A stretch of DNA of 64,000 nucleotides from Myxococcales bacterium (GCA_045863395.1 BTVJ01000032.1:1-64000), one strand, 5' to 3'; positions 19,886-54,770 are shown, numbered from the stretch's first letter. Program-made: numbers and translations. The notes: generated by a model from the letters alone, not told the origin.

Positions 19886-19999
19886 GGGCGCAACCCATGG
19901 CACAGCGGCAGGGGCGGGGTCAATGGGAAATGCAGGTGGTCGGGGGCACACGCCGCAGGCATGAGCGCCGACCCGACCCTGAGCGACCGCCTCGCCGGA

Positions 20000-26211: not shown

Positions 26212-26226
26212 GGCGCCCCTCCGCGC

Positions 26227-29502: not shown

Positions 29503-29516
29503 GACGCCCTCCGGTG

Positions 29517-31892: not shown

Positions 31893-32001
31893 GGCCGCGA
31901 CGGTAGACCACCACGGCCAATCTGGCAAGGCGCAAGTGGCATAGAGACACAACGAGGCACTCCTCCCGCACGGCAGCACTGTGAGCGGTTTCTGGGCGCG
32001 A

Positions 32002-36875: not shown

Positions 36876-36989
36876 CGGGTGCGGGCGGTGGCGCCGCGGC
36901 CGCCCGCGGCTCCACCTCTCCGAGGCTGCGCGACGACGACCCTGGTCCGCGGGGCGATGGCAGCAGAGAGCCCTGCAGGAGGAGTGGCG

Positions 36990-37451
36990 ATGAGGGTGAC
37001 AATCCTGGCTCTGGCGATCATCGTCGGCGGATGTGCGACATCGAGACGGCACGCTCCGGCGACACCGCAAGCTACGTCAGCGAGCTTCCCCGGAGGCGCA
37101 TCAGCGCAGGGCGGCGGCTGGGCCACGAGCCCCGTCGGGACCTCCACCCCCGACGTGGAGGTCCTGTGCGACGGCGCAAGGCCGCAGATCCGGTTCGACG
37201 ACGCCGCGCGCCAGCGTCTCTTCCCGAAGCACGAGGTCGTGTGGGTCCTGAGCCCCTTCGAGGGAGGCGGAAAGTGCCGGCTCTACGGCCTCGTGCGGAG
37301 GCCCCACCGGGGAGCGACGTTCCCCGACGACGTGCGCCTTCGGGCGACCGCCACGTTCCCGGACGACGGCGACCGGTGCCGCTGCGTCCCGACCAAGGCG
37401 CGGGCCCACGAGGGGTGGTTCCCGTCGGCGATCTCGGAGGTGAACCCATGA
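36990..37451 (+). CDS. Small lipoprotein
   Basis: AGGAGGAG RBS; MRVTILALAIIVGGC lipobox; ATGA overlap with the next gene. Confidence 0.7.
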   Translation: MRVTILALAIIVGGCATSRRHAPATPQATSASFPGGASAQGGGWATSPVGTSTPDVEVLCDGARPQIRFDDAARQRLFPKHEVVWVLSPFEGGGKCRLYGLVRRPHRGATFPDDVRLRATATFPDDGDRCRCVPTKARAHEGWFPSAISEVNP

Positions 37452-38662
37452 GCTTGACAGGGCCCCGTGCCCCCGAGGGGGGAGCCGCGCAGCTCGACGG
37501 CCCGGACGCGACCGGCGGGCTGCGCGAGCGCCTCGGGTGGGTGCGCCTCGGTTCGGAGGCCGAGGTCCGCGACCTGCTCACGTCACACCCGGCCTGGGAG
37601 GCGCTGGCGCCCATCCGGCAGAGCGCCACGGACGCCCGGGGGGCCATCGCCGACCAGGGCTTCGAGGTGGATCCCGGCGCGCTGGGCCTCACCCCCATCC
37701 TTGCCGAGGCCCGAGAGCGGTGGGGGCTCGCGCTGGACCTGCGCCTCTTGATGGTGCCGCGGCCGGAGTACAACGCCTTCGTGCTGGCAAACCCCTTCGA
37801 CGGAGAGGTCGTGCTCGGGGCGTCGTGCTCGCTGGTGGAGGACTTCGAGCCCCGGGAGCTGGCCTTCGTCATCGGGCACGAGCTCGGCCACCACGCCCTC
37901 GGGCACACGGCCATCGCCGGCCGCCGCCGGCAGCTCGCGGATCACGTGGCGCCCCACCACCCGCTGCGGCTCCTGGACGCGTCACTGGGGCGGCGGCAGG
38001 AGATCAGCGCGGACCGGGCAGGCCTCGTGGTCTGCGGCTCGGCCGCCGCTGCGCGCACCGCGCTGCTCAAGGCCGCGACCCAGACGCCAAACCGCCGCCT
38101 CGCGGCCGCCGTGCTCGCGGGCGGGCCCGACTGGGCCTTCGTGGACCCGGAGCTGGATGGGTTCGCCCCCTGGGCTCAGTCCCACCCGCCAGCGCGGGTG
38201 CGCGTCCGCGCCCTGGAGGGCTTCGCGCGGGACGCTGACGGCCACTCCCTCGCCGACCTGGACGCCCGCTGCGACGGGTGGCTCGATGCGCTGGAGGCCG
38301 ACGCCCTCAAACGGGATCGGGCCACCGTGGAGCGATTCGCCGCGGCGGTCGGGGCCGTCGTCGGGGCGACCGCAGGCGTGGCGGAGATTCCGGCGCTCTT
38401 CGCGGCCCATGCAGGCCCCTGGCTGGGCCAGGCAGGCGACCTGGAGGACGCCTGCGCCACCCTCCGCGAGCTGGCGAGCCCGGGGCGCCGCCTGCGCGTG
38501 CTCGCGGCGGCCATCAGCGTGCTGTCCGCGGACCTGCGCCTCGGGGCCGAGGCGGGCGCCCGGACCCGCGCGCTGGCGACGCGCCTGGGGCTGCCACCGG
38601 AGGCAGCGGACCGGCGCCTCGCCGCGGCCCGGGAGTCTTTGGCCCTGCGAGGGACGGAGTGA
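37448..38662 (+). CDS. M48 (HtpX/Ste24-like) zinc metallopeptidase
   Basis: YNAF, ELAFVIGHELGH, QEISADRAG, SHP..RV. Confidence 0.85.
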   Translation: MSLTGPRAPEGGAAQLDGPDATGGLRERLGWVRLGSEAEVRDLLTSHPAWEALAPIRQSATDARGAIADQGFEVDPGALGLTPILAEARERWGLALDLRLLMVPRPEYNAFVLANPFDGEVVLGASCSLVEDFEPRELAFVIGHELGHHALGHTAIAGRRRQLADHVAPHHPLRLLDASLGRRQEISADRAGLVVCGSAAAARTALLKAATQTPNRRLAAAVLAGGPDWAFVDPELDGFAPWAQSHPPARVRVRALEGFARDADGHSLADLDARCDGWLDALEADALKRDRATVERFAAAVGAVVGATAGVAEIPALFAAHAGPWLGQAGDLEDACATLRELASPGRRLRVLAAAISVLSADLRLGAEAGARTRALATRLGLPPEAADRRLAAARESLALRGTE

Positions 38663-38751
38663 ACCGCGGAGGCACCCGAACGGCCCCGCAATCCAGGGAC
38701 TCTCAGACACCCGATGGACTCGTCATCGCACCACGACGCGGAGGAGCACCC

Positions 38752-41034
38752 ATGAGGCGCCGTACACGCCCGACCCCGACCGCAACCATCACACGCCGCG
38801 TGGCATGGTTCCGCCTGATGCGGCCCGGCGCCACGCTGGACGACGTGCCCGCCGCCATCGTGCGGGCGTTGCGTGAGCTGGGGGACGCGCACCCGCTGCG
38901 CCTCGCCGTCACGACCCTCACCGGGACAGACAGCCCGACGGTGGACACATGGGTGTCCATCACCTCCGACCAGGAGGCTGCCTCCGCTGCGCTGAGCACG
39001 CTGCAGGAGGCGCTGGGGTGGTTCTCTCTCGGGACGGCCGACTGCTCCGCCGCGCTCCACGAGCACCGGGAGCGCCTCCCGGAGCAGCTCGCCCTCGTGC
39101 CCCACCCCGCCGATGGGAGCCTGCTGCTACCACGAGGGCCCGCTGCGGTTCAGCCCCTGCCCGCGCTGCTGGCGCACCTGGCTCGGCAGGGCACGCCCAC
39201 CATGGTCCAGGTGGAGGCGAGCACCGTGGGCCGGGACGAGGCCCTCGCGGTCGTCCCGGCGCTGCGCACGGCCCGCGCCGTCGCCGACGCCCTGGCTCCG
39301 CACCGCCTGGACGTGGCCTCACCGCAGGACCTGCTCGCGCCCCCGATGGCCCTGCGCGGGGCCGACCCGGAGCGTCTCATCGCCGACGTGGTGGGAAACC
39401 TGTGGCGGGTCCGCGTCGCGGTGCGCTCCGCGCGTCCCCTGCCCGAGCGCGTCACCACGGCCATCCGCCTGGCCTTGGAGGAAGGCGGCGTGCGGCTCGC
39501 GCAGGAGGCGACTTCCCCTGCCACGGGCGCCGGCATCGTACACACCACGGTCCTGCCGGCGGTGTGGCAGGTCCCCGTCGTCACAGCCCCGTGCGGCCAC
39601 CTGCGCGTCGAGGACCTGCCGCGCCTGCCTGCCCCCGTCGGGGCGCTGGACAAGGGCTTCCTCCTCGGCGAGACCGACGACGGCCCGCGCACCCGGGAGC
39701 TGCGCCTGGACCCGGAGGTCCTCGGACGCCACGCCTACGTGGTGGGCAAGACGGGCACCGGCAAGACCACCCTGCTGGAGTCTCTGGTGGCCAGCGCCAT
39801 CGAGCGCGGCGACCAGGCGGTCATCGTCGTCGACCCCCATGGCGACATGACCGAGAAGCTCCTGCGTTGGCTCCCCCGGGAGCACGCGGACCGCGCCTTG
39901 GCCATCGACTTCGGTGACCCGGAGCGGCTGCCGTCCCTCAACCTCCTCGAGGCCCGCGACGAGCAGGAGCGCGAGTTCGCCATCGGCGAGCTGGACGCGC
40001 TCTTCCTCGACATGTACGGCCCGGAGATCTGGGGGCCGCGCCTCCAGGACACCTTCCGCAACCTGGCGTCGCTGCTGAGCATCGACCCGGAAGGTCCCGG
40101 CACCCTCGTCGACCTGCTGTGGGCGGCCAACCTGCGCCACGACCCCATCCGGCACCGCCTGGAGGCCATCGCCGAGTCGTCCGGCTCCATCTCACACCGG
40201 ATCTTCCTGGAGCAGATCCAGCAACGACAGTACGGCGACGGGTCCCTGCAGGAGCTGGTGGCCTACTACCGCTCCAAGTTCTCGCCCTTCGTGGACAACA
40301 AGACGCTGCGCCTCGTGCTCGGGCGCCCCAAGTCCACCCTGGACATCGCCCGGTTCATCCGCGAGCGCCGCGTCTGCCTGTTCAACCTCAACAAGGGCCG
40401 CATCTCGTCCCGCTACGCGAGCCTCATCGGGCGCATCCTGACCGCGCGCATCTTCCAGGCGGCCCTCGCAAACGGACGCCTCCCCCCGGCCGAGCGCCCA
40501 CCGGCCCTGCTCGTGCTGGACGAGTTCCAGAACCTCGTGTCCCCCACCGTCGAGGACATCCTGGCCGAGGCGCGCAAGTACCGCCTCAGCGTCGTCCTCG
40601 CCAACCAGCACCTGGCCCAGGTGCGCAGGAGCCGCACCGACGTGCGGGGAGACCGCTCGTCCATGCTGGACGCCATCTTGGGCAACGTAGGGACGCTCGT
40701 CGCGTTTCGGCTCTCCGGGCTCGACGCGACACAGCTCGCCGCGGAGCTGGGGGGCCACGTACCGGCCGAGACCCTCTCGTCGCTGCCGGCGTGGCACGCG
40801 GTCTGCCAGGTGAGCGAGAGCCATCGGTGCGTGCCCCCGTTCCTGGCGCGGACGCGCCCGATTGGCGCGTGTGGAGACCCGAGCGTCGCGCGATCTGTCA
40901 GAAGCCGCAGCCGGCGGACTCTCTGTACCCGGCTGGACGACGCGGAGCGGGCGATCCGCCAACGCGTGCTCAGCCGCATGGGCATCGTGGACGTGCCGGA
41001 CGACCCCGTCGGGCACCTGCTGGAGAGGCTGTGA
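38752..41034 (+). CDS. VirD4/TraD-HerA-like P-loop ATPase
   Basis: RHAYVVGKTGTGKT, VVDPHGD, LVLDEFQN, EARKYRLS..ANQ, AILGNVGT; GGAGGAG before ATG 38752 (alternative start GTG 38659). Confidence 0.85.
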   Translation: MRRRTRPTPTATITRRVAWFRLMRPGATLDDVPAAIVRALRELGDAHPLRLAVTTLTGTDSPTVDTWVSITSDQEAASAALSTLQEALGWFSLGTADCSAALHEHRERLPEQLALVPHPADGSLLLPRGPAAVQPLPALLAHLARQGTPTMVQVEASTVGRDEALAVVPALRTARAVADALAPHRLDVASPQDLLAPPMALRGADPERLIADVVGNLWRVRVAVRSARPLPERVTTAIRLALEEGGVRLAQEATSPATGAGIVHTTVLPAVWQVPVVTAPCGHLRVEDLPRLPAPVGALDKGFLLGETDDGPRTRELRLDPEVLGRHAYVVGKTGTGKTTLLESLVASAIERGDQAVIVVDPHGDMTEKLLRWLPREHADRALAIDFGDPERLPSLNLLEARDEQEREFAIGELDALFLDMYGPEIWGPRLQDTFRNLASLLSIDPEGPGTLVDLLWAANLRHDPIRHRLEAIAESSGSISHRIFLEQIQQRQYGDGSLQELVAYYRSKFSPFVDNKTLRLVLGRPKSTLDIARFIRERRVCLFNLNKGRISSRYASLIGRILTARIFQAALANGRLPPAERPPALLVLDEFQNLVSPTVEDILAEARKYRLSVVLANQHLAQVRRSRTDVRGDRSSMLDAILGNVGTLVAFRLSGLDATQLAAELGGHVPAETLSSLPAWHAVCQVSESHRCVPPFLARTRPIGACGDPSVARSVRSRSRRTLCTRLDDAERAIRQRVLSRMGIVDVPDDPVGHLLERL

Positions 41035-41849
41035 TGAGCAGCGAGCCAGTTGACCGGGCCAGGCGCCGGGCGCTCCCGCTCCTGCCCGCGGCGCTGTGCG
41101 CCATCGCCGACGGCGCGCCCACCGCCGCGCGCCGGGTGGCGTTGCTCCGGGCGATCCGCGCCATGGGAACGCCGTGGGAGGCGACGGCGCTCCTGCTCAC
41201 CATCCTCGAAGAGCGGGCGGTCCGCCCGGAGCACATCCGCTCCCTCTATGCCCTGCGGGCGCTCCTGGTCGAAGAGAGTGCCACGGAGGCCCGCACAGAG
41301 GAGGCGCTCGGCTACGCCGCCGATGTGGCGCTCGCGGGCGGGCCGGGCGTGGACCAGCTCGCGGTGCTGGCGGCGGCCACCAGCGCGCTGGATGGGGACT
41401 GGGAGGTGCTCTCCAGGCGCGGGATCCCTGGCCGCCCGACCTCCGAGGATACGCGCGCCACGATGCGGAGCATCCTCGCGCGGGAGGTGACGCCGCCCCA
41501 CGAGAACCCCATCGACCTGTTCCGCGGCGCCCTCCCCATCGCGGGCCTCCCGACCCCGGGCAGCGCGGACCCTGTGCGCTTCTACGACGGCCTGGCCGGG
41601 TCCATCTCTCTGGCTCCACAGGAGCGGATCGCCGTCGTGGAGAGGCTCGGGAGCCTCACCCAAGTCCAGATCGACGCCCTGGTCGGGATCTTCGAGGAGG
41701 AGCGCGTCAAGTTCCTGTCGCTGGACGAGACGCACTACCCCCAGCTCCGCAGGCTGGCCGTCGAGTTCGGGGTGCAGTGGATCGAGGTCTACGAGGGCCT
41801 CACGGGGCGGCACGTCGTCACGCCCCGGCGGCGCGCAGGCGACGCTTGA
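41034..41849 (+). CDS. Hypothetical protein coupled to the VirD4-like ATPase
   Basis: TGATG overlap; helical C-terminal domain LAGSISL..ER..V..L..L.Q.QID.L..IFEEER.KF. Confidence 0.75.
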   Translation: MSSEPVDRARRRALPLLPAALCAIADGAPTAARRVALLRAIRAMGTPWEATALLLTILEERAVRPEHIRSLYALRALLVEESATEARTEEALGYAADVALAGGPGVDQLAVLAAATSALDGDWEVLSRRGIPGRPTSEDTRATMRSILAREVTPPHENPIDLFRGALPIAGLPTPGSADPVRFYDGLAGSISLAPQERIAVVERLGSLTQVQIDALVGIFEEERVKFLSLDETHYPQLRRLAVEFGVQWIEVYEGLTGRHVVTPRRRAGDA

Positions 41850-41874
41850 CAAGAAACGACGCGAGCGCTGTGAT
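41846..41874 (+). promoter_or_regulatory. Putative sigma70-type promoter
   Basis: TTGACA-17 nt-TGTGAT, about 65 bp upstream of ATG 41939. Confidence 0.45.
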
Positions 41875-41938
41875 GCGCGGCGGTGGTCTGCCTCTTGACG
41901 CCGAAGGGAGACAACCGCCGGACGCAGAGGAGTCGGGG

Positions 41939-44020
41939 ATGGCGACAGACCGCGCAGACAAGGAAGAGGTCACGCAGGATATCCAAGACGAGGCGCAGCG
42001 CGCCGTCGCGGAGCGCCTCGTGGAGCTCAGCTCGCGGGGGACTGAGCTCCCCAAGAACCACGGGACGGTGATGAAGCTCGTCGTCACTCGGCTCCGCAGA
42101 GCGCTCAAGCAAAGCAAGGTGCAGGAGGACCGCTCGTCGATCAGTGCGTGGTGCCGCGCGGACACCTGCGCCACCGCGCTGCGCGTGCGCTACATGGAGG
42201 ATACGGGCACCGACCTCAGGGACGCTGCCAGACGACGGTACACCGGGCTCGGGTTCAGCCCGGAGGACGCGGAAGAGTGGGCGGGCCGCATTGAGATTCG
42301 GTACTATGAGTCGGGGCCCAGCACACAGTTGGGGGAGCACTCGACAGAGTCCGACGTCTCGTACGTGACGCTTGCGTGGCTGAAGACGGTCACCCTGAAC
42401 GACGCCCTCAACCGTCGGCGCAGGGGGTGGAGGGTCACGGCCTGGGACGACGCGGACTGCCCGGCCGATGAGGTCACCGCGGCCGGAGGCCCGCAGGGTG
42501 CCCCACCGCCGGCACCGGACAAGCTGGTGGAAGCCCGTAACATGCTGGACCGCATTGCAGACCTCGTTCCCACGCTCCAACGCCGCGTCGCGCTCGTCGC
42601 GTCCGACATGCTGGCCCACCCGGACGACGAGCCGGCCGAGAGGGCGCTGCGACTGAACCTGACACCAGGGAACATCCACACGCAGACCTATCGGTTCAGG
42701 CAGGCGCTGGCCGCGGCCGACCTCTGCCGGCGGTCCAGTACAGCAGCAGTGACACCCGAGGATCCGGACGACGGCCCCGGGGGAGCGGGGAGAGGAAGGA
42801 AGACCATGAGCGCGCGAGACACGGTCGGAAAGGACCGCGCAGCGAAGAGCCAGCGCACGGCTCCACGGACCCAGACACCAGGCGGAGCCACGGGACCAGG
42901 CCCGGCGGTCGACTCCGCCACGGGTCAGGCCCCGCTCCTCGCGGAGGCTGCCCGAGTGGTCGGGGACCTCGTGCTGAGCGGCCAGCGGGTCGACGCGGAG
43001 GCGCTGGCCTCGGAGGCGCGCGGCGCCCGGGGAGCCGTCGAGGCGGCGCTGGAGGCCACGGACGGCGCGCTGATCGACGAGGCCATGCCCGGGCTCGCGG
43101 AGACCGGCGCCTGGCTGGCCGCGCACCCGGACCCCGCCACGCTACCGAACGAGGTCGCTGAGGCTTCCCTCGCGGTCCTCGAACGGCGACACCATGTGGA
43201 GGCGCTGCTTCTGGGGGCCGAGCAGATCGTGGGACGCCGCGTCGCGAGCATGGACCTCGCGACGTCCCTGGAGGCCTTCGACACGGCGGGACGCGAGACC
43301 CTCTGGGCCTTCGTGCCCTTGAACAGTGCGCGACGCGCGCGCGCCGCGGCGCTCGACCCGGAGGCGCGCGAGAGGTGCTGGTGGTGGTCCGAGGGGGCAG
43401 ACCTCGCAGAGGACTCCGTGCTCGCGCTGCGCAAGGCAGCTCGACTCATCGCGGTGTTCCCGGCGGCGCAGGGGGAGCTGGACGCGCTGATCGCGGCGGC
43501 CCGCGAGACCCGCGCCGAGGCCATGCGGACCACGAAGGGACACTCCGCCAGGCGGATGGCGAGCCGCGGGAGCCCGGAGAGGAGCGCACCGGGCGACAAA
43601 CGTCTCAGGGTGGGAGACATGAGAGTGACCACCGCCGCGGGGGCGCCGGACAACGACGCCGAACGGCTGGGCGTCGTGTACTTCCTGCAGTTCCGCGCGG
43701 TGCCAGGGCACGACAATGAGCGCCTGGTCGCCCACGGCAGCGAGGAGGAGGTCGTTGTCAGACCGCTCGACGGAGTCACTCTCTCCGTGGACGACGACGC
43801 GCTGATCATCGACTATGAGATGTCCTGCGACCCCGACCCGAGCAGACCTCCGGTGCTGGAGCCGGAGCGAGGAGCGATCATCGTGGCGACAGAGCCGTTC
43901 ACTGGGCGCTTCGTGCTGCCATTCCAGTCCATGGACACGGCCAGCACGACCGCGATACTCCGCGTGCCCCGGCGCGACCAGCCGGACCTGGTCGTGCAGA
44001 TCCCCTGGGAGGTGCCATGA
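41939..44020 (+). CDS. ECF-sigma-like N-terminal domain fused to a ~400 aa C-terminal (anti-sigma-like?) region
   Basis: GAGGAG RBS; region-2-like AWLKTVTLNDALNRRRR; region-4 HTH-like PAERALRLNLTPGNIHTQTYRFRQAL; low-complexity linker with an in-frame ATG at 42806 behind AGAGGAAGGAAG. Confidence 0.55.
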   Translation: MATDRADKEEVTQDIQDEAQRAVAERLVELSSRGTELPKNHGTVMKLVVTRLRRALKQSKVQEDRSSISAWCRADTCATALRVRYMEDTGTDLRDAARRRYTGLGFSPEDAEEWAGRIEIRYYESGPSTQLGEHSTESDVSYVTLAWLKTVTLNDALNRRRRGWRVTAWDDADCPADEVTAAGGPQGAPPPAPDKLVEARNMLDRIADLVPTLQRRVALVASDMLAHPDDEPAERALRLNLTPGNIHTQTYRFRQALAAADLCRRSSTAAVTPEDPDDGPGGAGRGRKTMSARDTVGKDRAAKSQRTAPRTQTPGGATGPGPAVDSATGQAPLLAEAARVVGDLVLSGQRVDAEALASEARGARGAVEAALEATDGALIDEAMPGLAETGAWLAAHPDPATLPNEVAEASLAVLERRHHVEALLLGAEQIVGRRVASMDLATSLEAFDTAGRETLWAFVPLNSARRARAAALDPEARERCWWWSEGADLAEDSVLALRKAARLIAVFPAAQGELDALIAAARETRAEAMRTTKGHSARRMASRGSPERSAPGDKRLRVGDMRVTTAAGAPDNDAERLGVVYFLQFRAVPGHDNERLVAHGSEEEVVVRPLDGVTLSVDDDALIIDYEMSCDPDPSRPPVLEPERGAIIVATEPFTGRFVLPFQSMDTASTTAILRVPRRDQPDLVVQIPWEVP

Positions 44021-45747
44021 CCCTGCCGCTCGCAGCCAGGGCGCTGCTCGACCTGGGAGTCCCGCGGTCCGCGGCGGCGCTGCTCGCCTCGACCAGTGAC
44101 CGGGGGCACGAGATCGGCGCGCTCCGCTCTCAGGCTTACAAGCGGCGGATGAGGCGGCTTGCCGCGGGCTTCTATGGGGTCGTCGTGCATGCAGACGTGG
44201 GACTGGTCCTTCCGCTGCACGTCGAGCGAGGAGTGGCGCGGGGCGCCCGGGACGACGCAAGCCTCGCCGCCTCCCAGCGGCTGGCCAACCAGCACGCGCG
44301 AGCGCTCTTCTCGGATTCGTCACGGCTCCCATCACTCATCGTTCGCCTGCCCGAGGACCTCGGTATCCAGGGAAGCTCCCTCGGCCTCGCGTCCTTCCTC
44401 GCGTTCGTCGCGCGCCTGGCTGGCATCGAGCCACGGCAGCCCATCGCGGCGCTCGGCGACCTGTGCTCGGGGGACACAGTCGGCTCCGTGGGCAGAGACG
44501 GGCCCAAGCTCGCGGCCATATCGCGCGACCTCACCGGCCAGGATGGCCTCGTGCTCGTGACTCCGGAGGACTCCTCTGCGATCCCCCGTGACATCCGGAC
44601 CATCCAGATTGAGACCCTCGGCGACGCCTTGCGCGCGGTCTTCGGCCGGACGAAGTTCAGGGCGGCGTTCGAGGTCGTGTCGCTGGAGGACATGCTTCGG
44701 ACCTGTCGCAGAGAGACCGACTCGGAGCGGGTAGTGAAGCATCTGGGCGGGATCCGCACCGACACCCTCCCGGTCGCCGATCAAGCCGAGGTCTTGATGC
44801 TCCTCGGGACTCACATGCGACACTTGGGCCGGACGGACGAAGCCCGAAGCTGCCACGAGGAGGCCGCGACGCTCCTCGAGGAGGCGGAGCCCGCACTGGG
44901 CGCCGCTCACATCGAGGACCTGCGCATGGAGTGCCTGGCCACCGAGGTCGACCGCTTCGAGCTGGAGGATCTCGAGTCCCGGCTGCGGGCGCGCCTCGCC
45001 GAGCCCTTCGCGACGCTCCACAACCGGGTCCGGTGCGCGGGAATGCTCTCCCAGGTCGTCTCCATGCGCGGGCGCCCCGATGAGGCGCTGCGGATCCGAG
45101 AGCCAAACCTGGAGATTCAGACTCGGCACGCCGGCATGCGGGACGAGATCCCGTGGACGTTGTGTGCCCTGGTGCTGGAGGCCGCGAGGGCCAGGAAGAC
45201 CGAGGCGTTCCGCCGCTTCGGGGTGCGGCTCCTCGAGGAGACGAGCGCGGGCGACGCGCACCAGGAAGGCTTCAACACGGCGGCACTCTCCCGCGGCCTG
45301 GCGTTGCTGGACCCTGCCGCGCTGGTCGCATGGGCGGACGGCGGCGACCTCTGGTCCCACGCGGCACCCCTGCACCTCCAGGCTCTGGCCAGCGGGCACC
45401 CCGTCGATGGCAACCCGGGCCTCTCGACTGCGAGGGCGCTGGTCCGGGCGCTTCGGGTCAACGGGCAGCCGCACCGCGCGGTCGCTGTCGCCCGCTCCGT
45501 CGCCCTGCCCGCGCACCCGCTGGCGCGATGGGTGGGGGCGCTCGCGCTGATCGAGGGGGCGCTCGCAGCCGCAGAGTCAGGCACAGACCCACTTCCCCTG
45601 TGGACGGCGGGGCGCCGGACGCTGGAGTCAGCCCACCCCGCCGCCGCGCGATTCCACGCGGAGCTGGGGATGCTGGACGCGGCGCCGCCGGCGCGGGAGG
45701 CGGACGTCGCAGCGCTGGAGTCACACATCGACCACGTGTGGTACTGA
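44017..45747 (+). CDS. Lon/S16-type Ser-Lys protease domain + TPR-like helical domain (no AAA module)
   Basis: IQGSSLGLA..IAALGDL..VGSVG..PKLAA..VLVTPED aligns by eye with the Lon motifs DGPSAG..AMTGEI..IGG..EK. Ser (codon 44377) to Lys (codon 44506) is 43 residues, as in E. coli Lon S679/K722. ATGA overlap. Confidence 0.75.
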   Translation: MTLPLAARALLDLGVPRSAAALLASTSDRGHEIGALRSQAYKRRMRRLAAGFYGVVVHADVGLVLPLHVERGVARGARDDASLAASQRLANQHARALFSDSSRLPSLIVRLPEDLGIQGSSLGLASFLAFVARLAGIEPRQPIAALGDLCSGDTVGSVGRDGPKLAAISRDLTGQDGLVLVTPEDSSAIPRDIRTIQIETLGDALRAVFGRTKFRAAFEVVSLEDMLRTCRRETDSERVVKHLGGIRTDTLPVADQAEVLMLLGTHMRHLGRTDEARSCHEEAATLLEEAEPALGAAHIEDLRMECLATEVDRFELEDLESRLRARLAEPFATLHNRVRCAGMLSQVVSMRGRPDEALRIREPNLEIQTRHAGMRDEIPWTLCALVLEAARARKTEAFRRFGVRLLEETSAGDAHQEGFNTAALSRGLALLDPAALVAWADGGDLWSHAAPLHLQALASGHPVDGNPGLSTARALVRALRVNGQPHRAVAVARSVALPAHPLARWVGALALIEGALAAAESGTDPLPLWTAGRRTLESAHPAAARFHAELGMLDAAPPAREADVAALESHIDHVWY

Positions 45748-45763
45748 GGGGGAGAGGCTCACC

Positions 45764-46534
45764 ATGTCCACCGGAAGGACCATCATCATCGGAGACGTCC
45801 ACGGCTGCATCGACGAGCTGGAGGCGCTGCTCCGCCACGTGTGCCTGGAGCCCCGAGACCGCCTCGTGTTCGCCGGCGATCTCGTGGATCGTGGGCCAGC
45901 CTCGGTGGGAGTCGTCCGGAGGACCAGGGAGCTCCTGGCGCGGCACCCGGGGAGCGTCTGTGTGGCGGGAAACCACGAGACGAAGGCGCTGCGATGGCGG
46001 GATCGAGGCGCGCCGAGGGAGTGGGAGCAGCCCATGCGCGAAGACGACTGGACGTTCCTCGACTCCCTCCCGCTGGTCATGCGCCTGCCCGAGCACGGCG
46101 CCACCGTCGTGCATGGCGGAGTCTTCCCGGCGTTCTTTGAGCGGTACGGGCGCATCGGCGAGGTCCCTCCTGACTGGCGCACGAGCCGCGACAAGCGCTG
46201 CGACCGTCTCCGCCGCTTCGTCCTGGTCCGGCACGTGGACTTGCGGGGAGAGATGACGGCGCTGGGATCGGAAGGGCCCGACACGGTCCACTGGACGGCA
46301 CGCTACGACGGCCGGGAGGGCCACGTCTTCTTCGGCCACGACCCGCAGCTCGGCGGAGAGCCACTACAGACGCCGAGCGCGACGGGGCTCGACACCGCCT
46401 GCTGCTTCGGGGGCCGCCTGACCGCAGCGGTGCTGCACCCGGGGCAAACCGCGGCGGAGGCCGAGTTCGCGAGCGTCCCCGGCACCCGCTACGCCGAGCC
46501 GCGGTGCATGCTCGACGAGACCGGCGCGCTCTGA
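45764..46534 (+). CDS. Calcineurin-like metallophosphoesterase (PPP/ApaH-like)
   Basis: GDVHG, GDLVDRG, GNHE, VHGG, FGH, GLDTAC..GG.LTA. Confidence 0.92.
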   Translation: MSTGRTIIIGDVHGCIDELEALLRHVCLEPRDRLVFAGDLVDRGPASVGVVRRTRELLARHPGSVCVAGNHETKALRWRDRGAPREWEQPMREDDWTFLDSLPLVMRLPEHGATVVHGGVFPAFFERYGRIGEVPPDWRTSRDKRCDRLRRFVLVRHVDLRGEMTALGSEGPDTVHWTARYDGREGHVFFGHDPQLGGEPLQTPSATGLDTACCFGGRLTAAVLHPGQTAAEAEFASVPGTRYAEPRCMLDETGAL

Positions 46535-46599
46535 TCACGAGGGGGGCCCAAGGTGGGGCCCTCGTCAAGCGCGGGGACACCCCCCGCACGGAGGAAACC

Positions 46600-46788
46600 A
46601 TGGGAAGCCTGACCGCCTGTCCGCGCTGCGGACGCACACTGACCAAGTCACTTCTGGGAGGGGCCTTCTTCCCGGTCTCCAAGTGCCTCAAGTGCGGCAC
46701 GAAGTACTGCAAGGACTGCGGCGGCACGAAGTGCCCGAAGTGTGGGGCCTCCGACCGCATGGAGACCGACAAGGTCTACGCGCGCTGA
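46600..46788 (+). CDS. Small double zinc-ribbon protein
   Basis: GGAGG RBS; CPRC, CLKC, CKDC and CPKC in 62 aa. Confidence 0.75.
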   Translation: MGSLTACPRCGRTLTKSLLGGAFFPVSKCLKCGTKYCKDCGGTKCPKCGASDRMETDKVYAR

Positions 46789-48596
46789 CCCGTCAGGGTC
46801 TCGGCGGTGACGGGCAGCTCGATGCGCGTCCGGCAGCCCTCGGTGCAGTCGAGCGTGAGCGTGGAGGAATCGGGGTCCCAGCCGCGGTATAGGAAGAGCC
46901 GCTCGGTGCCACAACCGCGGCAGTGAGCGGACAGCGCGAAGGGACCCGCCGAGAGCGGTGACGCGCCGCCGCGCAGATACACGTAGGTCAGCTCTTCGTC
47001 GCCGAGCCAGAGCCCCGTCTCCAGAGACTCGGCGCTGAAGACGACCCCACGCTCCTCACGCCGCGCCAGATCCGTGAAGCGATAGACGTGGAGGGTCGTG
47101 GCCGCGTCGTGCCCGAGCTGGTCGATGACCGCCAGGTCCACCGCGCGGAGCGCCGGCAGGGCCTCGACGAGGCCCACCCAAGCGGCCCGCAACTGCTCGA
47201 CCTGCCGCGGATCCGTGATGGGGCGTCCGTGGGCCTCGTCGTTGCGGGCATCGCGCAGGGAGCGGAGCGCATCCGAGGAGAGCACCGGACCCAGCTCCGC
47301 CGCGAGCCGGACCGGGAGGGCGGGGGAGGCATCCCGTACGGCTCGGCCCAACGCCCGCTGGAAGGACGTTCGGATCCGCGCGACGTCCATGAGTCCTCGG
47401 CGACCGCGGCTCAGGTGCTCCATCACGCCGTCTCCACCTCCTGGAAGCCGCCGGAGCCCGAGGATCAGGACCAGCTCGATGAAGGCCAGGAGCTGCTCCA
47501 AGTGAGTCACGACGGCCCGGACGACCGCCCCGGAGCGAGCGCGTGGTGAGGCCGCGATCACCGCCTGGCGACGAAGAGGCCAGGGAAGCGCGGCCGCGCA
47601 CCAGGCTCTGCGAGCTGCCTCCCAGGACGTGGCAGCAACGGTCTCCAGCTCCTCCCGAAGGCGCGCAGGAGCGCCTGCAACGACCCCATGCAGCGCGGCC
47701 AGACCCCACGCCAGCTCGATGAAGTGCCAGGCCCGCACCTCTGGGAAGTCGGGGCACGGCCGCCGCGTCTCCCGCACCTGGAGGATGTGACGCGCCAGGT
47801 CCAACAGGACGACCCGGGTCTCCTCCGTGACGGCGCCGCCATCGATCGAGAGATCCAGCAGGGTCGCGAGGCACGCCAGCCGGGGCGCGTAGACGAAGGA
47901 GAGCTTGTATCCCTCGGCCGTGAAGAAGGAGTCCTCCTCGGCGAAGCGAGGAGACACCAGCTCCGCCATGAGCCACCGGCGCGCCCGAGCCTGGGACTCG
48001 GGTGGGATCGCGCCTCGCAGCGACGTGAGGGCGAGGGACGTGCCGAGGCGACTCGGAGGACCGCCCGGGCGAAAGGGCCAGGCACCGGTGTCGAGCTGCA
48101 GAGAAAGTAGCCGCGCATGGTCTGGAGTCACGTCACACGTGTTGGAGAGCGCGAGGATGGAGTAGGCCGTGCTGTAGGTGCGGACGTCTGGACTATCGTC
48201 ACTGACGCCCCAGCCTCCATCGGGGAGCCGCGCACCTTGGAGCCACGAGCGCGCTCGCTCGATCACAGACGATCCGCGGCCGCGGGCCCCCGCGCCGAGC
48301 AAGAAGGCCGCGGTGGCGTCCACGATGGAGACCGGTCTCCCACACGCGGGCTCGGCATAGGGGAGACCGGCCTGGCTTCGCTCCAGAGCGGCCTCCAGGA
48401 ACCGTTCAGATGTCTCCAGCGCGAAGTTCAGAGTGTCCGAGAGCCGGGGAAGCGCCGCGAGGGCCCCATAGATCTCTGCCGTGGTCCAGCAGCCGCTCCG
48501 GTCCCCTGCGTAGGTCTCGGGAAAACCCCCGTCCGGGTTCTGCCACGATGCCACGTCGTCGAGGGCGGTCAGCCCCACGCGCAGCAGCTCGTTCAC
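46776..48596 (-). CDS. Prenyltransferase/squalene-cyclase-type repeat domain + HEPN-like domain
   Basis: QNPDGGF, LPDGGWG and QLDTGAW repeats; then HLEQLL..RNDEAHG (RxxxxH, 47229-47246) and a C-terminal PF..CRGC..LFLY domain. Confidence 0.65.
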   Translation of the reverse strand: MNELLRVGLTALDDVASWQNPDGGFPETYAGDRSGCWTTAEIYGALAALPRLSDTLNFALETSERFLEAALERSQAGLPYAEPACGRPVSIVDATAAFLLGAGARGRGSSVIERARSWLQGARLPDGGWGVSDDSPDVRTYSTAYSILALSNTCDVTPDHARLLSLQLDTGAWPFRPGGPPSRLGTSLALTSLRGAIPPESQARARRWLMAELVSPRFAEEDSFFTAEGYKLSFVYAPRLACLATLLDLSIDGGAVTEETRVVLLDLARHILQVRETRRPCPDFPEVRAWHFIELAWGLAALHGVVAGAPARLREELETVAATSWEAARRAWCAAALPWPLRRQAVIAASPRARSGAVVRAVVTHLEQLLAFIELVLILGLRRLPGGGDGVMEHLSRGRRGLMDVARIRTSFQRALGRAVRDASPALPVRLAAELGPVLSSDALRSLRDARNDEAHGRPITDPRQVEQLRAAWVGLVEALPALRAVDLAVIDQLGHDAATTLHVYRFTDLARREERGVVFSAESLETGLWLGDEELTYVYLRGGASPLSAGPFALSAHCRGCGTERLFLYRGWDPDSSTLTLDCTEGCRTRIELPVTAETLTGQRA

Positions 48597-49140: not shown

Positions 49141-50121
49141 TCACGAAGACACCGGCGATGATCGGACCATGCGGAAGCCCGACGTGTCGTCGTGCCAGTC
49201 CGGCGTCGAGTAGTGGCGGAGCGATGCACGGAGCGAAGCCGCGGTCGAGACCCAGGATCCGCCCCGCGACACGCGGCCCGTGCCCTGGGCCGGGCCCGTG
49301 GGGTCGTCCACGGCTCCCGCGGGATACTCACCATAGCGATCCCAGCACCACTCCCAGACGTTGCCCAGTACGTCGTGGAGACCCCACGCGTTGGCCGCTC
49401 GCTCCGCAACGCGCTGAGGTGCGCGGACTGCGTCCGCACGGCTCCAGGCAATCGCCGGAACTGCCCCATAGGTAGGGCCGGTCGAGCCAGCCCGGCAGGC
49501 GTACTCCCACTCCGCCTCGGTGGGGAGCCGGTAGCCCCCCGTGTGGTGGGCGGCGAGGACCCTGTCACACCGGAAACCGGCTCCCGCCGCGCGACCGTTG
49601 CTCCCAAAGTAGGCGTAGCACGGCGTCAGGCCCTCCTTCAACGACAGGGCGTTGCAGTACCACACGGCGTCATACCAGCTCACGTTGACCACCGGAGCCA
49701 GGGGATCTCCACCCCTTGCCCCGCCCGGGAGGCTCTGTAGCAGCCCCGCCCACTCTCCGTTGGTGACGGGGCACACCTGAATCAGGAACGGGCGCGTGAG
49801 GGTGACGACGTGCTGGCGCTCGTCCCCGAAGCGACCGGGCTCGTCCCTGGGCGCCCCCATCGGGAACTGGCCAGGCTCGACCCGCACCCAGCCAGGCGGA
49901 ACGGAAGGAGGCTGCGGGCCAGGGCCGCCCGGATCGACCGGGTACCCGTCCAGCACCGCCTCCACATCGTCAGGGTGGACGCCCACGGCCACACCGCGCT
50001 CCGCGAGGACCGCGCGCGCCCGAGGCGTGATGGCACCGTAGGCGCATACTGCGAGGTCAACCGCGTCGCGAAACCTGGCGAGAGCCTCTGGGTCCGAGAG
50101 AACGAACGTGAGGTCGGACAC
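49141..50121 (-). CDS. FGE-sulfatase (SUMF1-like) domain protein
   Basis: AAGGAGG before GTG 50121; FPMG, PVVNVSWYDA, YRLPTEAEWEYACRAG, NAWGLHDVLGNVWEW, RGGSW, GFR. Confidence 0.88.
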   Translation of the reverse strand: MSDLTFVLSDPEALARFRDAVDLAVCAYGAITPRARAVLAERGVAVGVHPDDVEAVLDGYPVDPGGPGPQPPSVPPGWVRVEPGQFPMGAPRDEPGRFGDERQHVVTLTRPFLIQVCPVTNGEWAGLLQSLPGGARGGDPLAPVVNVSWYDAVWYCNALSLKEGLTPCYAYFGSNGRAAGAGFRCDRVLAAHHTGGYRLPTEAEWEYACRAGSTGPTYGAVPAIAWSRADAVRAPQRVAERAANAWGLHDVLGNVWEWCWDRYGEYPAGAVDDPTGPAQGTGRVSRGGSWVSTAASLRASLRHYSTPDWHDDTSGFRMVRSSPVSS

Positions 50122-50214
50122 ACGCACCTCCTTGCGGGCGGCGAGTCTACTCGACTTGTGGGGAGCTGGGAACCCGCCGTGCACATGGGACCGCAGCACC
50201 GGGAATGAGCGGCG

Positions 50215-50883: not shown

Positions 50884-53800
50884 TCACAGGTACAGGACCA
50901 GCGGGCAGGCCTCGATCCGCTCCTGCGCCGACTCCTTCGACTTGCAGCGGGCGAGGTGCGCCTCGTAGACGGCCCGCGGCAGGTCGATGGGGCGGCCGAT
51001 GGACGCGCGGACCCTCCGCAGGAGGCTTCCTGCCACATTCACCATCTCGGCGTCCAGCACGGACCAGAGGGTCACGACCAGCGCGCCGCTCCCGGCCGCG
51101 ATGAAGGCGCGTAGGAAACCGGACACTTCGCCACCGGGCGCGTCGGCTCCCTGGCCCGTGACGCACGCACCGAGGACCGTGAGCTTGTTGCGGGCGAGGC
51201 GCAGAGACGCGGCGATGTCGAACTGCGTGAGCACGTCTCCCTCCAACGCCAGGGCTGGGCCCAGGGCGTCGAGGCGGCGGTCCCAGAGGCCGTGGCCGGT
51301 GTAGACGAAGACCTCGGGGCGGGGAGCGGTGAGCCGTCCCAGGGTCGCTCGGCTGGCGGGACCGACGGGCCTGACTCGTGGCGCCCACTCCGGGAGGGTC
51401 CCCGCCCAGTGGAGGTCCTCCCGAGGCCAGTCGAGGCCCTTCAGCTCGCGCCCCGTGGTGTTCTCGTCGAGGAGCGCCAGCACGCACAGGTCGTCGCCCG
51501 GCTCGATGGTCTGCACACGGAGCAGGTGGCGGGACCGGCTCACGAAGGCGGCCGCGCTCACGGAGAAGCAACAGGGGAGGGATGCCGCCAGGGGCCACCT
51601 CGTCTTCGGCTCGAAGGCGACATGGAGCGGATAGCGGAACAGCTCGCCACAGGGGATGATCACGAGCAGCTCCGGCGGAGCGGCACCTCCGCACACGTGC
51701 TTCCAGAGCGGCGCCAGCAGGTGATCGCTCATGGCCTGCGCGAGCTCGACCGTCGGACCCGTGTCAGGGTCCGCCTGGAGGCGGCCCTGGTAGGCATCCC
51801 ATGCGAATCTGACTGGTGCGAGCTGCAGGTCGTCCACAAACTCCATGCGGGCACCGCGGAACACGAAGGCACCCAGCGCAACTCGCTCTCCCTCGACATG
51901 CTCGAAGTAGCGGATCACTGCGACATCCGGGTGGTTCGTCGTGAAGCCGCGCACCGTCCGGCCCAGGTCTTCGTCATGGCCGCTGGTCGGGATGGGGTGG
52001 TTCAGCATCCACTGCTCATAGAAGGTACGGCGTTGCCCGATGGCTGCGTCGACGCCCGAGCCCGACACCCCGTCGGTCCGGCGCATGGTTCCCCGGCGCC
52101 GCACGCGCATTCCCTTCCTCTTCCTGGCGGGCTGCGAGACCTGGATGTCCGCGAAGAGAGGCACCTCCGGCAGCGCCGCGATGCCCTCGGCGGGCGCACG
52201 GCGAGAGGCTCCCTGCATGAGGTCAAGCAGCTCCCGGGCGCTGGCCTCCTCCACATAGGCGAGGGCGTCCTCCCGGCTCTCACCCACGGAGGGGACGCGC
52301 TCCGACCTGAGGGGGGCCCGGCGGAGGCTGGCCGCGACGGCCTCTCGATACACCGGCGCCACGTGGCTCGCGAGGGCGGCCTTGTGCTGGCCGACGGTGA
52401 CGACCTTCCGCTGCGACTCGACCGTGCGCAGCCGCTCTCGCAGCCAGCGGATGCGGGCACTGGAAACGTCATCGCCTTGTCGCTCCATCTCGGTGATCAC
52501 CTTGTGGTAAGCCGCCAGCGCGAAGGTCTGGCGGTCCAGATCGAAGCCAGCCTGGGCTGAGGGCCGGGCGCGCGCCTCCTCGAGCTCATCCACGAGTCCC
52601 TCCACCAGCGCCCGCGCTTCACCGACATCGCCTTGAAGCAGCCGGATCTCCGCCAGGTTCTGTCGAGCGATGAGGCGCCCCCGGACCCAGGGGAGCACGT
52701 CGATGGACTCCCTGCACAGCCCTGCCGCCTGATCGAGGTGGCGGGACCTCTCTTCGCCGGACGACTTCTCCGCCCTCGACTTGTGCAGCCGCGTCTGATG
52801 GCCGAGCGCCTGCGCGAGCCGGTACGCATCTCCGTTGGCGCGAGCGATGACCTCTGACCCCCGGGACCACGAGAGCGACAGCTCCTCGTCCGACGACGAC
52901 AGCTCGTCGGACCCGTTGTGGTACAGGCTGCACAGGCCCCGGAGATGCTCGCGGTCCCTCGGAGACTCGGGGGGAGTGACCTCGCCGACTCGCAGCGCGG
53001 CAATTCCATGGAGATTGGCCACCCTGATCGCATCCTCGATGAGCGGTCGGTAGCGCTCCTCGGGCGGGCCAGGCGCGGTGCCGACCGTCCGCTTCTCCTG
53101 CGTGGCACCGCGCTCCAGGTTGCTCCTCAGGTCCGCCAGGCACCACCACAGGTCGTGCTCGACGGCGACCGTCACGGCACGCTCGAACGACCGCCGCCCC
53201 TCCGTATGGTCCCCGGCCCGGTAGCTGGCCTTGCCCGCGCCGTCGAACCACCGGGCCGCCGCGTAGGCGTGCCACTGGACGTCGGGATGCTTCGTATCCA
53301 GACGCTGTTCGAGGGACTCGGCCAGCGCCCGGGAGCGGTCGGCGAGCTGGAGCGCCTCGTGGTACTCGTAGGCGACGTCCGCGCTAACGATGCGGCACCA
53401 CCACGCGCCCACCGCGCAGGCGAGCTGCTCCACGGGGTCCGACGGAGACCGAGGCAGGAAGGCGCCAAGCGATTCGAGGTGGCCAAGGCAGACGTGGTGG
53501 CGGTACTCCGTGTCGTAGACCGCGTCGAAGAGCTCGACCAGGCCTCGCACCCTGTCGCGCACGCCGGGGTCTCCGAGGTCGGTTCGGGCGGTACCAGCCA
53601 AAGCAACCGCTGGCGCGCTCGGGGGGAGAGGCGGCTGTCTGCGCGCATCCGCCCGCGCCGGCGGCTGCGTGAGCACGGAGGGAGACGACGAAGCCGCGTC
53701 GAGCGTGTCGACCACGGGGGCGCCGCTGGGGGGGGTCACGACGGCCCCCTGGTTCATGGCCACCGGGGGCTCGGGAAGCATCGGCTGCTCCTGTCCCGGC

Positions 53801-54657: not shown

Positions 54658-54770
54658 CTTCCAGTCTCCCCAGGATCTGCGGATGCGGTGGCGGAGTCTC
54701 GGACCTCGATCCTCCCTGCCGCACCACCTTACGTCTTCGCCCCCACTTCCGGCAATCACCCCGCTCCTGC

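Follow-up and report, generated by a model that had tools for sequence, protein, structure and literature searches.

The closest described counterparts of the locus examined here are the protease-controlled sigma factors of type III CRISPR systems. As outlined in the portions of the reports cited, CalpL cuts its partner CalpT within a poorly structured LAAA motif, and the C-terminal fragment of CalpT docks on CalpL (10.1101/2024.05.08.593097); in the type III-E Craspase, the TPR-bearing protease Csx29 (TPR-CHAT) is paired with CASP-sigma and the inhibitor Csx30 (PMC10028731). The present locus occupies positions 41939–46788 of a 64,000-nt stretch of DNA (the window) from a Myxococcales bacterium (an uncultured myxobacterium; GCA_045863395.1 BTVJ01000032.1:1-64000). 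Two of its genes, P0001 (a sigma-like domain, A, fused to a partner module, B) and P0002 (a Lon-TPR protease, C), may constitute a self-contained, CRISPR-independent transcription switch that works like CalpL/CalpT/CalpS: a Lon protease gated by its TPR would cut B and free the sigma; we put the probability of this reading at about 0.5.

Three features described for CalpL–CalpT–CalpS recur here: a Lon Ser/Lys protease that lacks an ATPase and carries a putative sensor domain; an ECF-like sigma encoded alongside the protease (sub-threshold in the window, upstream in 7/7 loci, and a canonical ECF in one relative, L004); and a two-part partner with a disordered Ala-rich linker, which holds the cut site in CalpT and a candidate cut site in B. 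The two systems differ in that the sensor is SAVED in CalpL but a TPR superhelix in P0002, which has no Pfam SAVED match; in that CalpL belongs to type III CRISPR, whereas the 64 kb examined here contain no cas gene and cyclic-oligoadenylate logic is lacking; in that B could not be related to any chain of solved structure; and in that sigma and partner form one chain in P0001. The 50 best structural matches of P0002 included LonA and LonB but not CalpL. Craspase, insofar as the cited text describes it, also combines a TPR-bearing protease with a sigma and an inhibitor (the latter proposed here), but its caspase-like CHAT protease is gated by Cas7-11 and target RNA, whereas P0002 is a Lon (S16) protease with no Cas partner.

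Individual parts of the locus have further counterparts. LonA and LonB (MEROPS S16) share the fold and catalytic dyad of P0002, which differs in having no AAA+ unfoldase, with three helices on its N-terminal side and the TPR on its C-terminal side. The best fold matches of P0002 residues 217–576 are RRNPP sensors (Rap, NprR, PlcR) and MalT domain III, superhelices that bind a ligand or peptide and switch an attached output; the likeness is of fold only, no peptide gene was identified, and P0002 has a protease as its output. ECF sigmas with fused regulatory C-terminal extensions likewise carry a sigma-like head with its own regulator in cis, and kinase-regulated ECFs are paralleled by kinase links in L004 and in the family members P0065 and P0066. 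Unlike those extensions, that of P0001 is a whole partner protein, which relatives encode separately, and a dedicated protease is coupled to it. In the ECF reclassification paper, a term search of the main text returned no named Lon or TPR context, and no paper on the cassette was found in the literature searched.

Gene organization

P0001 (41939–44020, + strand; 693 aa) was defined by ORF, translation and coding frame, and P0002 (44017–45747, + strand; 576 aa) by ORF, translation and an AF2 model. The original prediction that the sigma-like fusion gene is ATGA-coupled to the Lon-type gene is borne out at 44017–44020, where the stop of P0001 overlaps the start of P0002. After a gap of 16 nt follows P0003 (45764–46534, + strand; 256 aa), an ApaH/PP2A-like metallophosphoesterase, and then P0004, a small Zn-ribbon protein; the + strand frames of all four genes were fitted by codon-position GC. 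Upstream, a + strand gene at 41034–41849 precedes P0001 in the same, rather than a divergent, direction. A weak housekeeping-promoter-like site, TTGACA-N17-TGTGAT (41846–41874, + strand), lies 65 nt upstream of P0001; it was read by eye and was not called in a promoter scan.

Families of cas and SAVED proteins were absent from the 33 window ORFs scanned with Pfam, in line with the CRISPR-free setting originally described, and PADLOC gave no match for P0001 or P0002. A CHAT gene at 50884–54759 forms a separate unit on the strand opposite to P0001 and P0002.

An ATPase-less Lon domain with a TPR superhelix

The AF2 model of P0002 (pLDDT 94.5) contains a Lon (S16) proteolytic domain at residues 46–213 (44152–44655, + strand), assigned by both fold and profile matches (VIA Z 18.7, rmsd 2.5 Å over 161 residues). 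The top Foldseek matches were LonA and E. coli Lon proteolytic domains (TMt 0.69), and a search independent of Foldseek gave Z 17.8 against 1rr9. Pfam Lon_C (PF05362) did not match P0002 at E ≤ 1 and its gathering score was not reached, so that kinship to Lon is visible in sequence only via the family profile; in the latter's alignment to E. coli and Yersinia Lon (E 2.3e-13), the conserved Ser and Lys fall on the catalytic positions. The catalytic Ser and Lys of Lon are S679 and K722. Among the distant matches of the same profile, 6 of the 16 scanned were bona fide Lon_C proteins. The Ser-Lys dyad with 43-residue spacing that had been noticed in P0002 corresponds to S121 (44377–44379) and K164 (44506–44508), and sits within a true Lon fold; each residue is shared by 48 of 49 aligned C-family members, the sole exception being the kinase fusion P0065.

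Also upheld is the claim that the protease has no AAA module: P0002 matched no Pfam AAA family, and in the model only residues 1–45, forming three short helices, precede the Lon domain. Residues 217–576 (44665–45744, + strand) form the TPR-like superhelix. Its Pfam TPR matches all fell below the cut-offs (best E 9.7e-4), but the superhelix anticipated for the tail is clear from the predicted fold, with Z 17–20.5 to Rap, MalT domain III and LGN. The individual values (Z 20.5 to phage Rap, with rmsd 4.6 Å over 307 residues; 18.7 to MalT domain III; 18.3 to NprR) indicate likeness of fold alone; TPR solenoids match one another readily. The C-terminal tail is a conserved [IL]-D-x-V-[WYF]-Y, with Tyr as the final residue in 45 of 49 members. 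Overall, the model describes P0002 as an ATPase-less Lon (S16) domain joined to a Rap/NprR/MalT-like TPR superhelix.

A divergent sigma-like domain

The A domain (P0001 residues 1–260; 41939–42718, + strand) appears to be an ECF-like sigma of divergent sequence, parts of which resemble regions 2 and 4, on the strength of a chain of sub-threshold but mutually consistent sequence comparisons. In the window itself, the N-terminal domain had no Pfam match at E ≤ 1, and P0001 reached the NCBIfam sigma PRK11922 at E 4e-4 with 20 bits against a cut-off of 204; its sigma likeness falls below every curated cut-off. The connection runs through the A family of relatives, to which hhalign linked the N-domain with 69–77% probability (E 4e-5 to 2.1e-5). 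All six PDB matches of a 12-row A-family profile, and the best four of a 7-row profile, were ECF sigmas (E 7e-4 to 2.3e-3 for the family), Pfam Sigma70_r2 gave weak matches in four A proteins, and ESM Atlas features of the A domain scored 0.96–0.97 to sigma clusters. The A-family HMM did not reach P0001 at E ≤ 0.01, and a profile built from P0001 and its relative P0010 found no sigma in the PDB. The original description of an ECF-sigma-like N-domain thus receives support, through the A family (hhalign 77%) to ECF sigmas, that stays below formal thresholds.

A sequence-orphan partner module

Between A and B lies linker 1 (residues 261–335; 42719–42943, + strand), a Pro/Gly/Arg-rich tether with 73% disorder-prone residues that is poorly conserved relative to P0010 and is absent from relatives in which A and B are separate genes. 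B itself is a sequence-orphan in which a helical domain is followed by a disordered linker bearing an [LVI]AA[AS] motif and then by a beta-sandwich. The helical domain (residues 336–541; 42944–43561, + strand) carries a conserved [FC]WWW motif, is conserved in relatives in the gene preceding Lon-TPR, and was modelled by AF2 in blocks mostly of pLDDT >90; it had no PDB match with Z ≥ 8. Linker 2 (residues 544–603; 43568–43747, + strand), a candidate cleavage site, corresponds to residues 209–268 of the B model, where pLDDT is <50. The position of the relatives' [LVI]AA[AS] motif is occupied in the window by LVAH (43724–43735), not LAAA. The beta-sandwich (residues 604–689; 43748–44005, + strand), a candidate protease-docking module, was modelled as strands with pLDDT 70–87, and fold searches returned only generic Ig-like matches (Z 6.8, Foldseek E 0.02).

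B profiles found no chain of note in the PDB, and residues 336–693 showed no likeness in sequence or fold to any solved protein, anti-sigma factors included (best Z 7.3, generic). No solved anti-sigma was matched by either sequence profile or fold search.

The A-B-C unit in relatives

The set of sigma-like, partner and Lon-TPR genes is rare and conserved, and the named records among its loci are Myxococcota or "delta proteobacterium". In relatives the unit consists of three genes: A (divergent ECF-like sigma), B (partner) and C (Lon-TPR). In line with the original reading, the genes are linked elsewhere too: B immediately precedes C in 9 of the 11 loci having upstream sequence, with A upstream of B in all seven loci long enough to show it. 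L020, which did not contribute to the B model, scored E 2.7e-51. Fusion of A and B in one chain was found in the window and in one 57%-identical relative (P0010), and no indel interrupts the A-to-B junction in contigs from other runs that span it. Because B is a separate gene in relatives, the system is a true three-part set of sigma, partner and Lon-sensor, which strengthens the CalpL/CalpT/CalpS analogy in this one respect. In L004, a canonical ECF sigma abuts C (Pfam r2 E 1e-14, r4_2 E 1.4e-13) and B is absent; a kinase gene lies upstream of this sigma–C pair. Only L014 among the relatives has a Cas_GSU0053 gene adjoining C.

The relationship of C to the sigma–partner pair bears on the best-surviving alternative, in which A and B would be an ordinary sigma/partner pair under other control, with Lon-TPR acting as a defence-island effector (a sensor-protease) that cuts invader or host proteins once its TPR has bound a trigger and the sigma only driving its expression. 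Such an arrangement seems unlikely, yet several observations are consistent with it: STAND NTPases can carry a Lon domain as an effector-like N-terminal head (P0088, which is Lon-like + nSTAND1 + WD40), the surrounding genes are of kinds typically seen in conflict islands (CHAT, NUDIX, FGE-sulfatase, AbiEii-like, Cas_GSU0053), and A′-B′ pairs occur without C. Five such pairs, from genomes or loci without C, stop right after the B helical domain, whereas the linker and beta module is present in 10/10 C-linked B copies versus 3/8 C-less B-like genes, which points to a direct relation between B and C and argues against an independent effector, as does the translational coupling of C to A-B through ATGA. 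Besides L004, the exceptions to the linkage are L027, L031 and L032, which have two-domain B-like genes with no C nearby, in genomes where no C-family match was better than E 1.5e-4. All ten C-linked B proteins have an [LVI]AA[AS]-like motif ahead of the beta domain, counting LVAH of the window.

Proposed mechanism

What the analysis itself shows is how P0002 folds, that its dyad is conserved, that A, B and C are linked as genes, that A and B are fused, and that the modelled B has a disordered linker. Sigma activity, the binding of A to B and of B to C, the cleavage site, the trigger and the regulon are inferred, and the following steps of a protease-operated switch may be envisaged. B would be the cognate binding partner of A, most likely an anti-sigma-like inhibitor that keeps A inactive; in the window, the two are covalently tethered via the 75-residue disordered linker. 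P0002 would be an ATP-independent Ser/Lys protease gated by its TPR superhelix, the triggering ligand of which is probably a peptide or protein. On activation, P0002 might dock on the B beta-sandwich and then cut B in the disordered linker where the [LVI]AA[AS]-type motif lies. Once B had been removed or degraded further, the sigma domain would be free and could redirect RNA polymerase to a putative regulon. A cut at the conserved motif of the fused chain would leave the sigma joined to the B helical domain, and would not free it by itself.

This last consequence is easier to accommodate if B is an activator, adaptor or signalling substrate rather than an inhibitor, serving as a second subunit that sigma function requires or contributing a released beta domain as a signal matured, rather than removed, by Lon-TPR. 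The natural A-B fusion also fits cooperating partners more readily, and B has neither an anti-sigma-like fold nor a zinc motif. We nevertheless consider such roles improbable: the solved structures searched offer no precedent, and fused sigma–regulator chains are known as self-inhibited forms in the cited portion of PMC8999054.

Returning to the protease-operated switch, a more specific version is possible but somewhat doubtful. Here, P0001 would be a single-chain sigma 'zymogen', tethered to its own inhibitor and activated by a dedicated, ATP-independent Lon protease whose TPR directly senses a peptide or protein (e.g. from phage or kin). The pair would belong to a wider unnamed class of CRISPR-independent Lon-sensor/partner/sigma switches in defence islands, with B a new anti-sigma fold whose beta-sandwich and LAAA-type linker act as a portable 'cut-me' receiver. 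If the mechanism holds, protease-released sigmas are not confined to type III CRISPR (CalpLTS, Craspase) but reflect a general bacterial design with an exchangeable sensor domain (SAVED, TPR), and a function could be given to ~60 clusters of unannotated metagenomic proteins. The family supplies a new, sequence-orphan partner fold in B, as well as natural fused and natural split versions of one switch that are suited to dissection; such a compact ligand-gated protease/transcription module could become a synthetic-biology part.

Kinase links and downstream neighbours

Two family members combine the TPR with a Ser/Thr kinase, P0065 being kinase + dyad-less Lon + TPR and P0066 kinase + TPR only; since P0065 retains the TPR and has lost the dyad, the module can work without proteolysis. 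Taken with the kinase gene of L004 and the position of P0003 16 nt after P0002, these fusions could suggest that the TPR is a scaffold bringing a modifying enzyme to the sigma, with Lon secondary and with phosphorylation and dephosphorylation as the actual control, exerted by Ser/Thr kinases together with, in the window, the PP2A/ApaH-like phosphoesterase, but this is very improbable given retention of the dyad in 48/49 members, the lack of a kinase in the window's cluster and the absence of P0003 from L001–L006.

P0003 matched Pfam Metallophos (PF00149) above the cut-off (E 5.4e-17) and belongs to a widespread family (1341 matches). By tblastn, both the phosphoesterase and the Zn-ribbon genes were absent from L001–L006, and they are apparently retained only in the closest relative. 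The original prediction was thus correct in placing both downstream of P0002, but they are neighbours that lie outside the conserved unit. P0004 shows four CxxC pairs in its sequence, with Pfam matches all under the cut-offs; its ORF spans 46504–46788 (+ strand) from a GTG, and its true start is probably M33 at 46600, giving a gene of 46600–46788.

A fused member of a conserved triad of sigma-like, partner and protease genes

Four plus-strand open reading frames, every one backed by codon-position G+C in a window of ~72% G+C, occupy 41939-46788: P0001 (41939-44020, 693 aa), P0002 (44017-45747, 576 aa), P0003 (45764-46534, 256 aa) and P0004 (46504-46788; 94 aa from GTG, with a 62-aa product starting at M33 more likely). 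The stop codon of P0001 and the start codon of P0002 share an ATGA, in agreement with the original observation. Named relatives are Minicystis rosea and Polyangiaceae/Myxococcales MAGs. We examined 13 further loci with a gene of the P0002 family (C), two of which (L016, L021) lack upstream sequence. Pairwise BLAST and HMM searches revealed a separate gene, B, homologous to P0001 residues 336-693 and directly upstream of C, in nine of the remaining 11 loci (L001, L002, L003, L005, L014, L017, L018, L019 and L020); the B HMM was trained on eight of these, and recovered the B protein of L020, outside the training set, with E 2.7e-51. B is missing from L004 and from L006, in which C is reduced to a broken C-terminal piece. 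A third gene, A (~235 aa), lies upstream of B in all 7 loci with sufficient sequence on that side (L002, L003, L005, L017-L020), with one extra ORF separating A from B in L017. The linkage anticipated by the original prediction thus recurs, and the conserved unit is a triad, A-B-C, of which P0001 represents two genes fused: a sigma-like A part (residues 1-260), a disordered tether (261-335) and the B part (336-693). One P0001 relative of equal length, P0010, has the same layout at 57% identity. Contigs from other sequencing runs cross the junction without indels, so the fusion does not stem from misassembly.

The phosphoesterase and Zn-ribbon genes of the original observation follow downstream. 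P0003, a metallophosphoesterase of the common ApaH/PP2A type (Pfam E 5.4e-17), has 1341 relatives at E<=1e-20. Neither it nor the Zn-ribbon gene P0004 is present in L001-L006; P0003 seems to be retained only in the closest relative, as an 89%-identical protein. Judged by these neighbourhoods, P0003 and P0004 do not belong to the triad. PADLOC returned one weak match for P0003 (PDC-S10, E 0.005) and none for P0001, P0002 or P0004. As noted originally, the window is free of cas and SAVED genes (33 ORFs scanned). Among the loci examined, L014 provides the only CRISPR link, with a Cas_GSU0053 gene (type I-associated; L014:2684-3982) closely following its Lon-TPR gene.

P0002 is a Lon-type protease with a TPR superhelix

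Single-sequence searches with P0002 gave no match in the PDB and only sub-threshold TPR matches in Pfam. An AlphaFold2 model built from a 49-sequence alignment (mean pLDDT 94.5) matches residues 46-213 to the proteolytic domains of Lon (Foldseek TMt 0.69; VIA Z 18.7, rmsd 2.5 Å over 161 residues), and a Foldseek-independent search gave Z 17.8 for this likeness. The family profile also matches E. coli Lon (E 2.3e-13) and aligns the Ser and Lys of the family with its catalytic columns; Ser121 and Lys164 are each conserved in 48/49 members, the sole exception being the kinase fusion P0065. Neither Pfam nor the model shows an AAA+ module in P0002, as noted originally. The C-terminal residues 217-576 can be superposed on Rap (Z 20.5, rmsd 4.6 Å over 307 residues) and on MalT domain III (Z 18.7), as well as on NprR and LGN, which upholds the TPR-like tail; because TPR solenoids readily match one another, these similarities establish no more than the fold. 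Family members terminate in a conserved [IL]-D-x-V-[WYF]-Y sequence (45727-45744 in the window), with Tyr as the final residue in 45/49 members and an aromatic penultimate residue in 47/49. This tail could act as a plug for autoinhibition or as a peptide for docking.

The Lon-TPR family is rare. A word-index search found five proteins; searching 1.84 billion representatives with a profile gave 209 matches at E<=1e-3, of which 64 reach E<=1e-30. The distant matches cover just profile positions ~100-215, where Pfam Lon_C was found in 6/16 of those scanned; others include two fusions to Ser/Thr kinases and an nSTAND1-WD40 protein that bears a Lon-like head. At E<=1e-10, the family was not found in a sample of 400 other genomes of the same phylum (three candidates scored per genome), and it was found in neither of two genomes of the same order. 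Ser/Thr kinases are joined to the TPR module of the family or encoded next to it: P0065 combines a kinase with a dyad-less Lon domain and TPRs, P0066 comprises a kinase and TPRs only, and L004 (6676-9213) has consecutive genes for a kinase, a canonical ECF sigma and a Lon-TPR protein, with no B gene. Genome G000 also has a second Lon-like ORF (C7:89570-93073; L008), which is distant, at least 760 aa long and marked by a GSSLGL motif; it is preceded by a 399-aa ORF without known family, and the two may be another Lon-plus-partner pair.

Sigma likeness of A and the P0001 N-terminal domain

The A proteins resemble divergent ECF sigma factors. Matches to Pfam Sigma70_r2 are weak (E 4.9e-5 to 4.5e-3), and a search of the PDB with the A profile gave SigL as the best match (E 7e-4), with ECF sigmas as the four best of nine matches; with a 12-row A profile, all six matches were ECF sigmas. 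The family also aligns with the canonical ECF sigma abutting C in L004 (hhalign 63%, E 7e-5). For P0001 itself, residues 102-241 align with the A family at 77% probability (hhalign, E 2.1e-5; 69% with seven rows), an NCBIfam sigma model matches at E 4e-4, well under its cut-off, and the nearest ESM Atlas neighbours of the N-terminal domain are sigma clusters (0.96-0.97), which we treat as a lead only. However, the A HMM did not match P0001 at E<=0.01, a two-row P0001 profile found no sigma in the PDB, and a single-sequence PDB search with P0001 gave no match. MAFFT could not align the A family with the P0001 N-terminus in the presence of B rows, even with window-fragment guide rows, and alignments A4 and A8 were used for their B columns only or discarded. 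The predicted sigma character of this domain is retained as a likeness that lies under every curated cut-off.

The partner B and its candidate cleavage site

B has no Pfam family, its profiles found no relative in the PDB, and an ESM Atlas feature search gave no match. The AlphaFold2 model (18 rows, mean pLDDT 77.5) comprises a bundle of long helices containing a conserved [FC]WWW motif (P0001 residues 336-541, mostly pLDDT >90), a low-confidence stretch (544-603, pLDDT <50) and a beta-sandwich (604-689, pLDDT 70-87). Fold searches gave nothing above Z 7.3, the best matches being generic syntaxin-like three-helix bundles and Ig-like sandwiches, so B does not recognisably correspond to an anti-sigma domain of known type; a zinc motif is also absent. 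Within the disordered stretch, just N-terminal of the beta domain, an [LVI]AA[AS]-like motif occurs in 10/10 C-linked B proteins, as LAAA in five and as LVAH in the window.

Among 301 genomes of the order of Minicystis, a reciprocal search with the B profile matched 11, and the C profile matched three (few candidates scored). A further eight loci carry B-like genes and lack C within 1.5 kb, and a full search of five of their genomes gave no C-family match better than E 1.5e-4. Five of the eight (L025, L026, L028, L029 and L030) carry A'-B' pairs in which B' ends right after the helical domain, such that this domain accompanies a sigma-like gene regardless of C. A C-terminal domain is retained in the other three, one with LAAAG; the linker-plus-beta module occurs in 10/10 C-linked copies versus 3/8 C-less ones. 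This distribution is suggestive, though no proof, of a division of labour in which the helical domain binds the sigma and the linker with the beta domain receives the protease. The five A'-B' loci belong to Polyangiales genomes, and the Lon-TPR gene is missing from these loci and from the genomes checked; the stand-alone pairs may represent an unrecognised sigma/partner family.

Comparison with known proteolytic switches

CalpL is reported as a sensor-fused, ATPase-less Lon protease that cuts the anti-sigma CalpT at a poorly structured LAAA motif; the C-terminal CalpT fragment docks onto CalpL, and the remainder is degraded, freeing an ECF-like sigma (10.1101/2024.05.08.593097). By analogy, from which we infer each biochemical step, P0001 and P0002 would operate like CalpL/CalpT/CalpS, with the TPR superhelix of P0002 as the sensor. 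Of the CRISPR-free switch originally proposed, in which P0002 cuts the C-terminal part of P0001, the triad anatomy and the motif-bearing disordered linker are supportive, but no known anti-sigma domain is recognisable in B. The fused form presents a weak point: a cut at the candidate LVAH site would leave the sigma joined to the B helical domain, and its release would then depend either on continued degradation, as with CalpT, or on the tether being cut as well. CalpL is not among the 50 best matches listed in either VIA search, which is no evidence of a different fold. Overall, the reading of P0001/P0002 as a variant of the protease-released sigma factor, with a natural sigma-partner fusion as its special point, is partly supported.

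Caspase-based systems in which an ECF sigma and a TPR protein are encoded nearby have been described (Kaur et al. 2021); they are a parallel to the Lon-TPR/sigma cassette and not the same system. No paper on the cassette was found in the literature searched, and a term search of the paper that reclassifies the ECF sigmas (main text) gave no Lon or TPR context.

Genomic setting and occurrence

A 271-aa gene without Pfam family, supported by frame plot and translation, lies directly 5′ of P0001 on the plus strand (41034-41849), and P0001-P0002 therefore fall within a plus-strand row (36090-46788) that also holds, upstream, an M48 peptidase gene (36872-38662, +) and a TraD/VirD4/HerA-like ATPase gene (ending at 41034, +). 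None of these three genes recurs beside the triad in relatives. A promoter scan of 41500-47000 gave no credible promoter or terminator, and a motif upstream of A, CCTGACAAAAAAA, is common only to three closely related loci (L002, L003 and L018). An RNA ligase gene (PF09414) is divergent from A in L002 (7037-8482, −) and L003 (6999-8363, −), and the upstream DNA of L018 is similar.

Metagenomes of wastewater, sludge, bioreactors and aquatic sites from several studies contain the locus in near-identical form. Pieces of the locus also occur in metatranscriptome assemblies of two studies, whose contigs give neither strand nor level; because DNA carry-over is possible, they hint at expression weakly at best. 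Contigs from other runs differ from the window at only four positions in 3.4 kb over P0001-P0002, and at 32-33 positions in ~1 kb at 46025-47000 (from the second half of P0003 through P0004 into the gene after it), which may mark a strain-level recombination boundary.

Elsewhere in the window, very large minus-strand genes stand in a row at 15944-32039 (SNF2 helicase, 1351 aa; DUF6782 metallopeptidase-like, 1444 aa; tubulin-like, 1358 aa), and two proteins have FGE-sulfatase domains (90-2678, −, and 49141-50199), features typical for conflict-system islands. Third-position G+C is lower across about 32000-56000 (~0.78-0.87) than in the flanks (0.90-0.96), and this region, with the triad, a CHAT-NUDIX pair and an FGE gene, is by its composition consistent with a horizontally acquired island.
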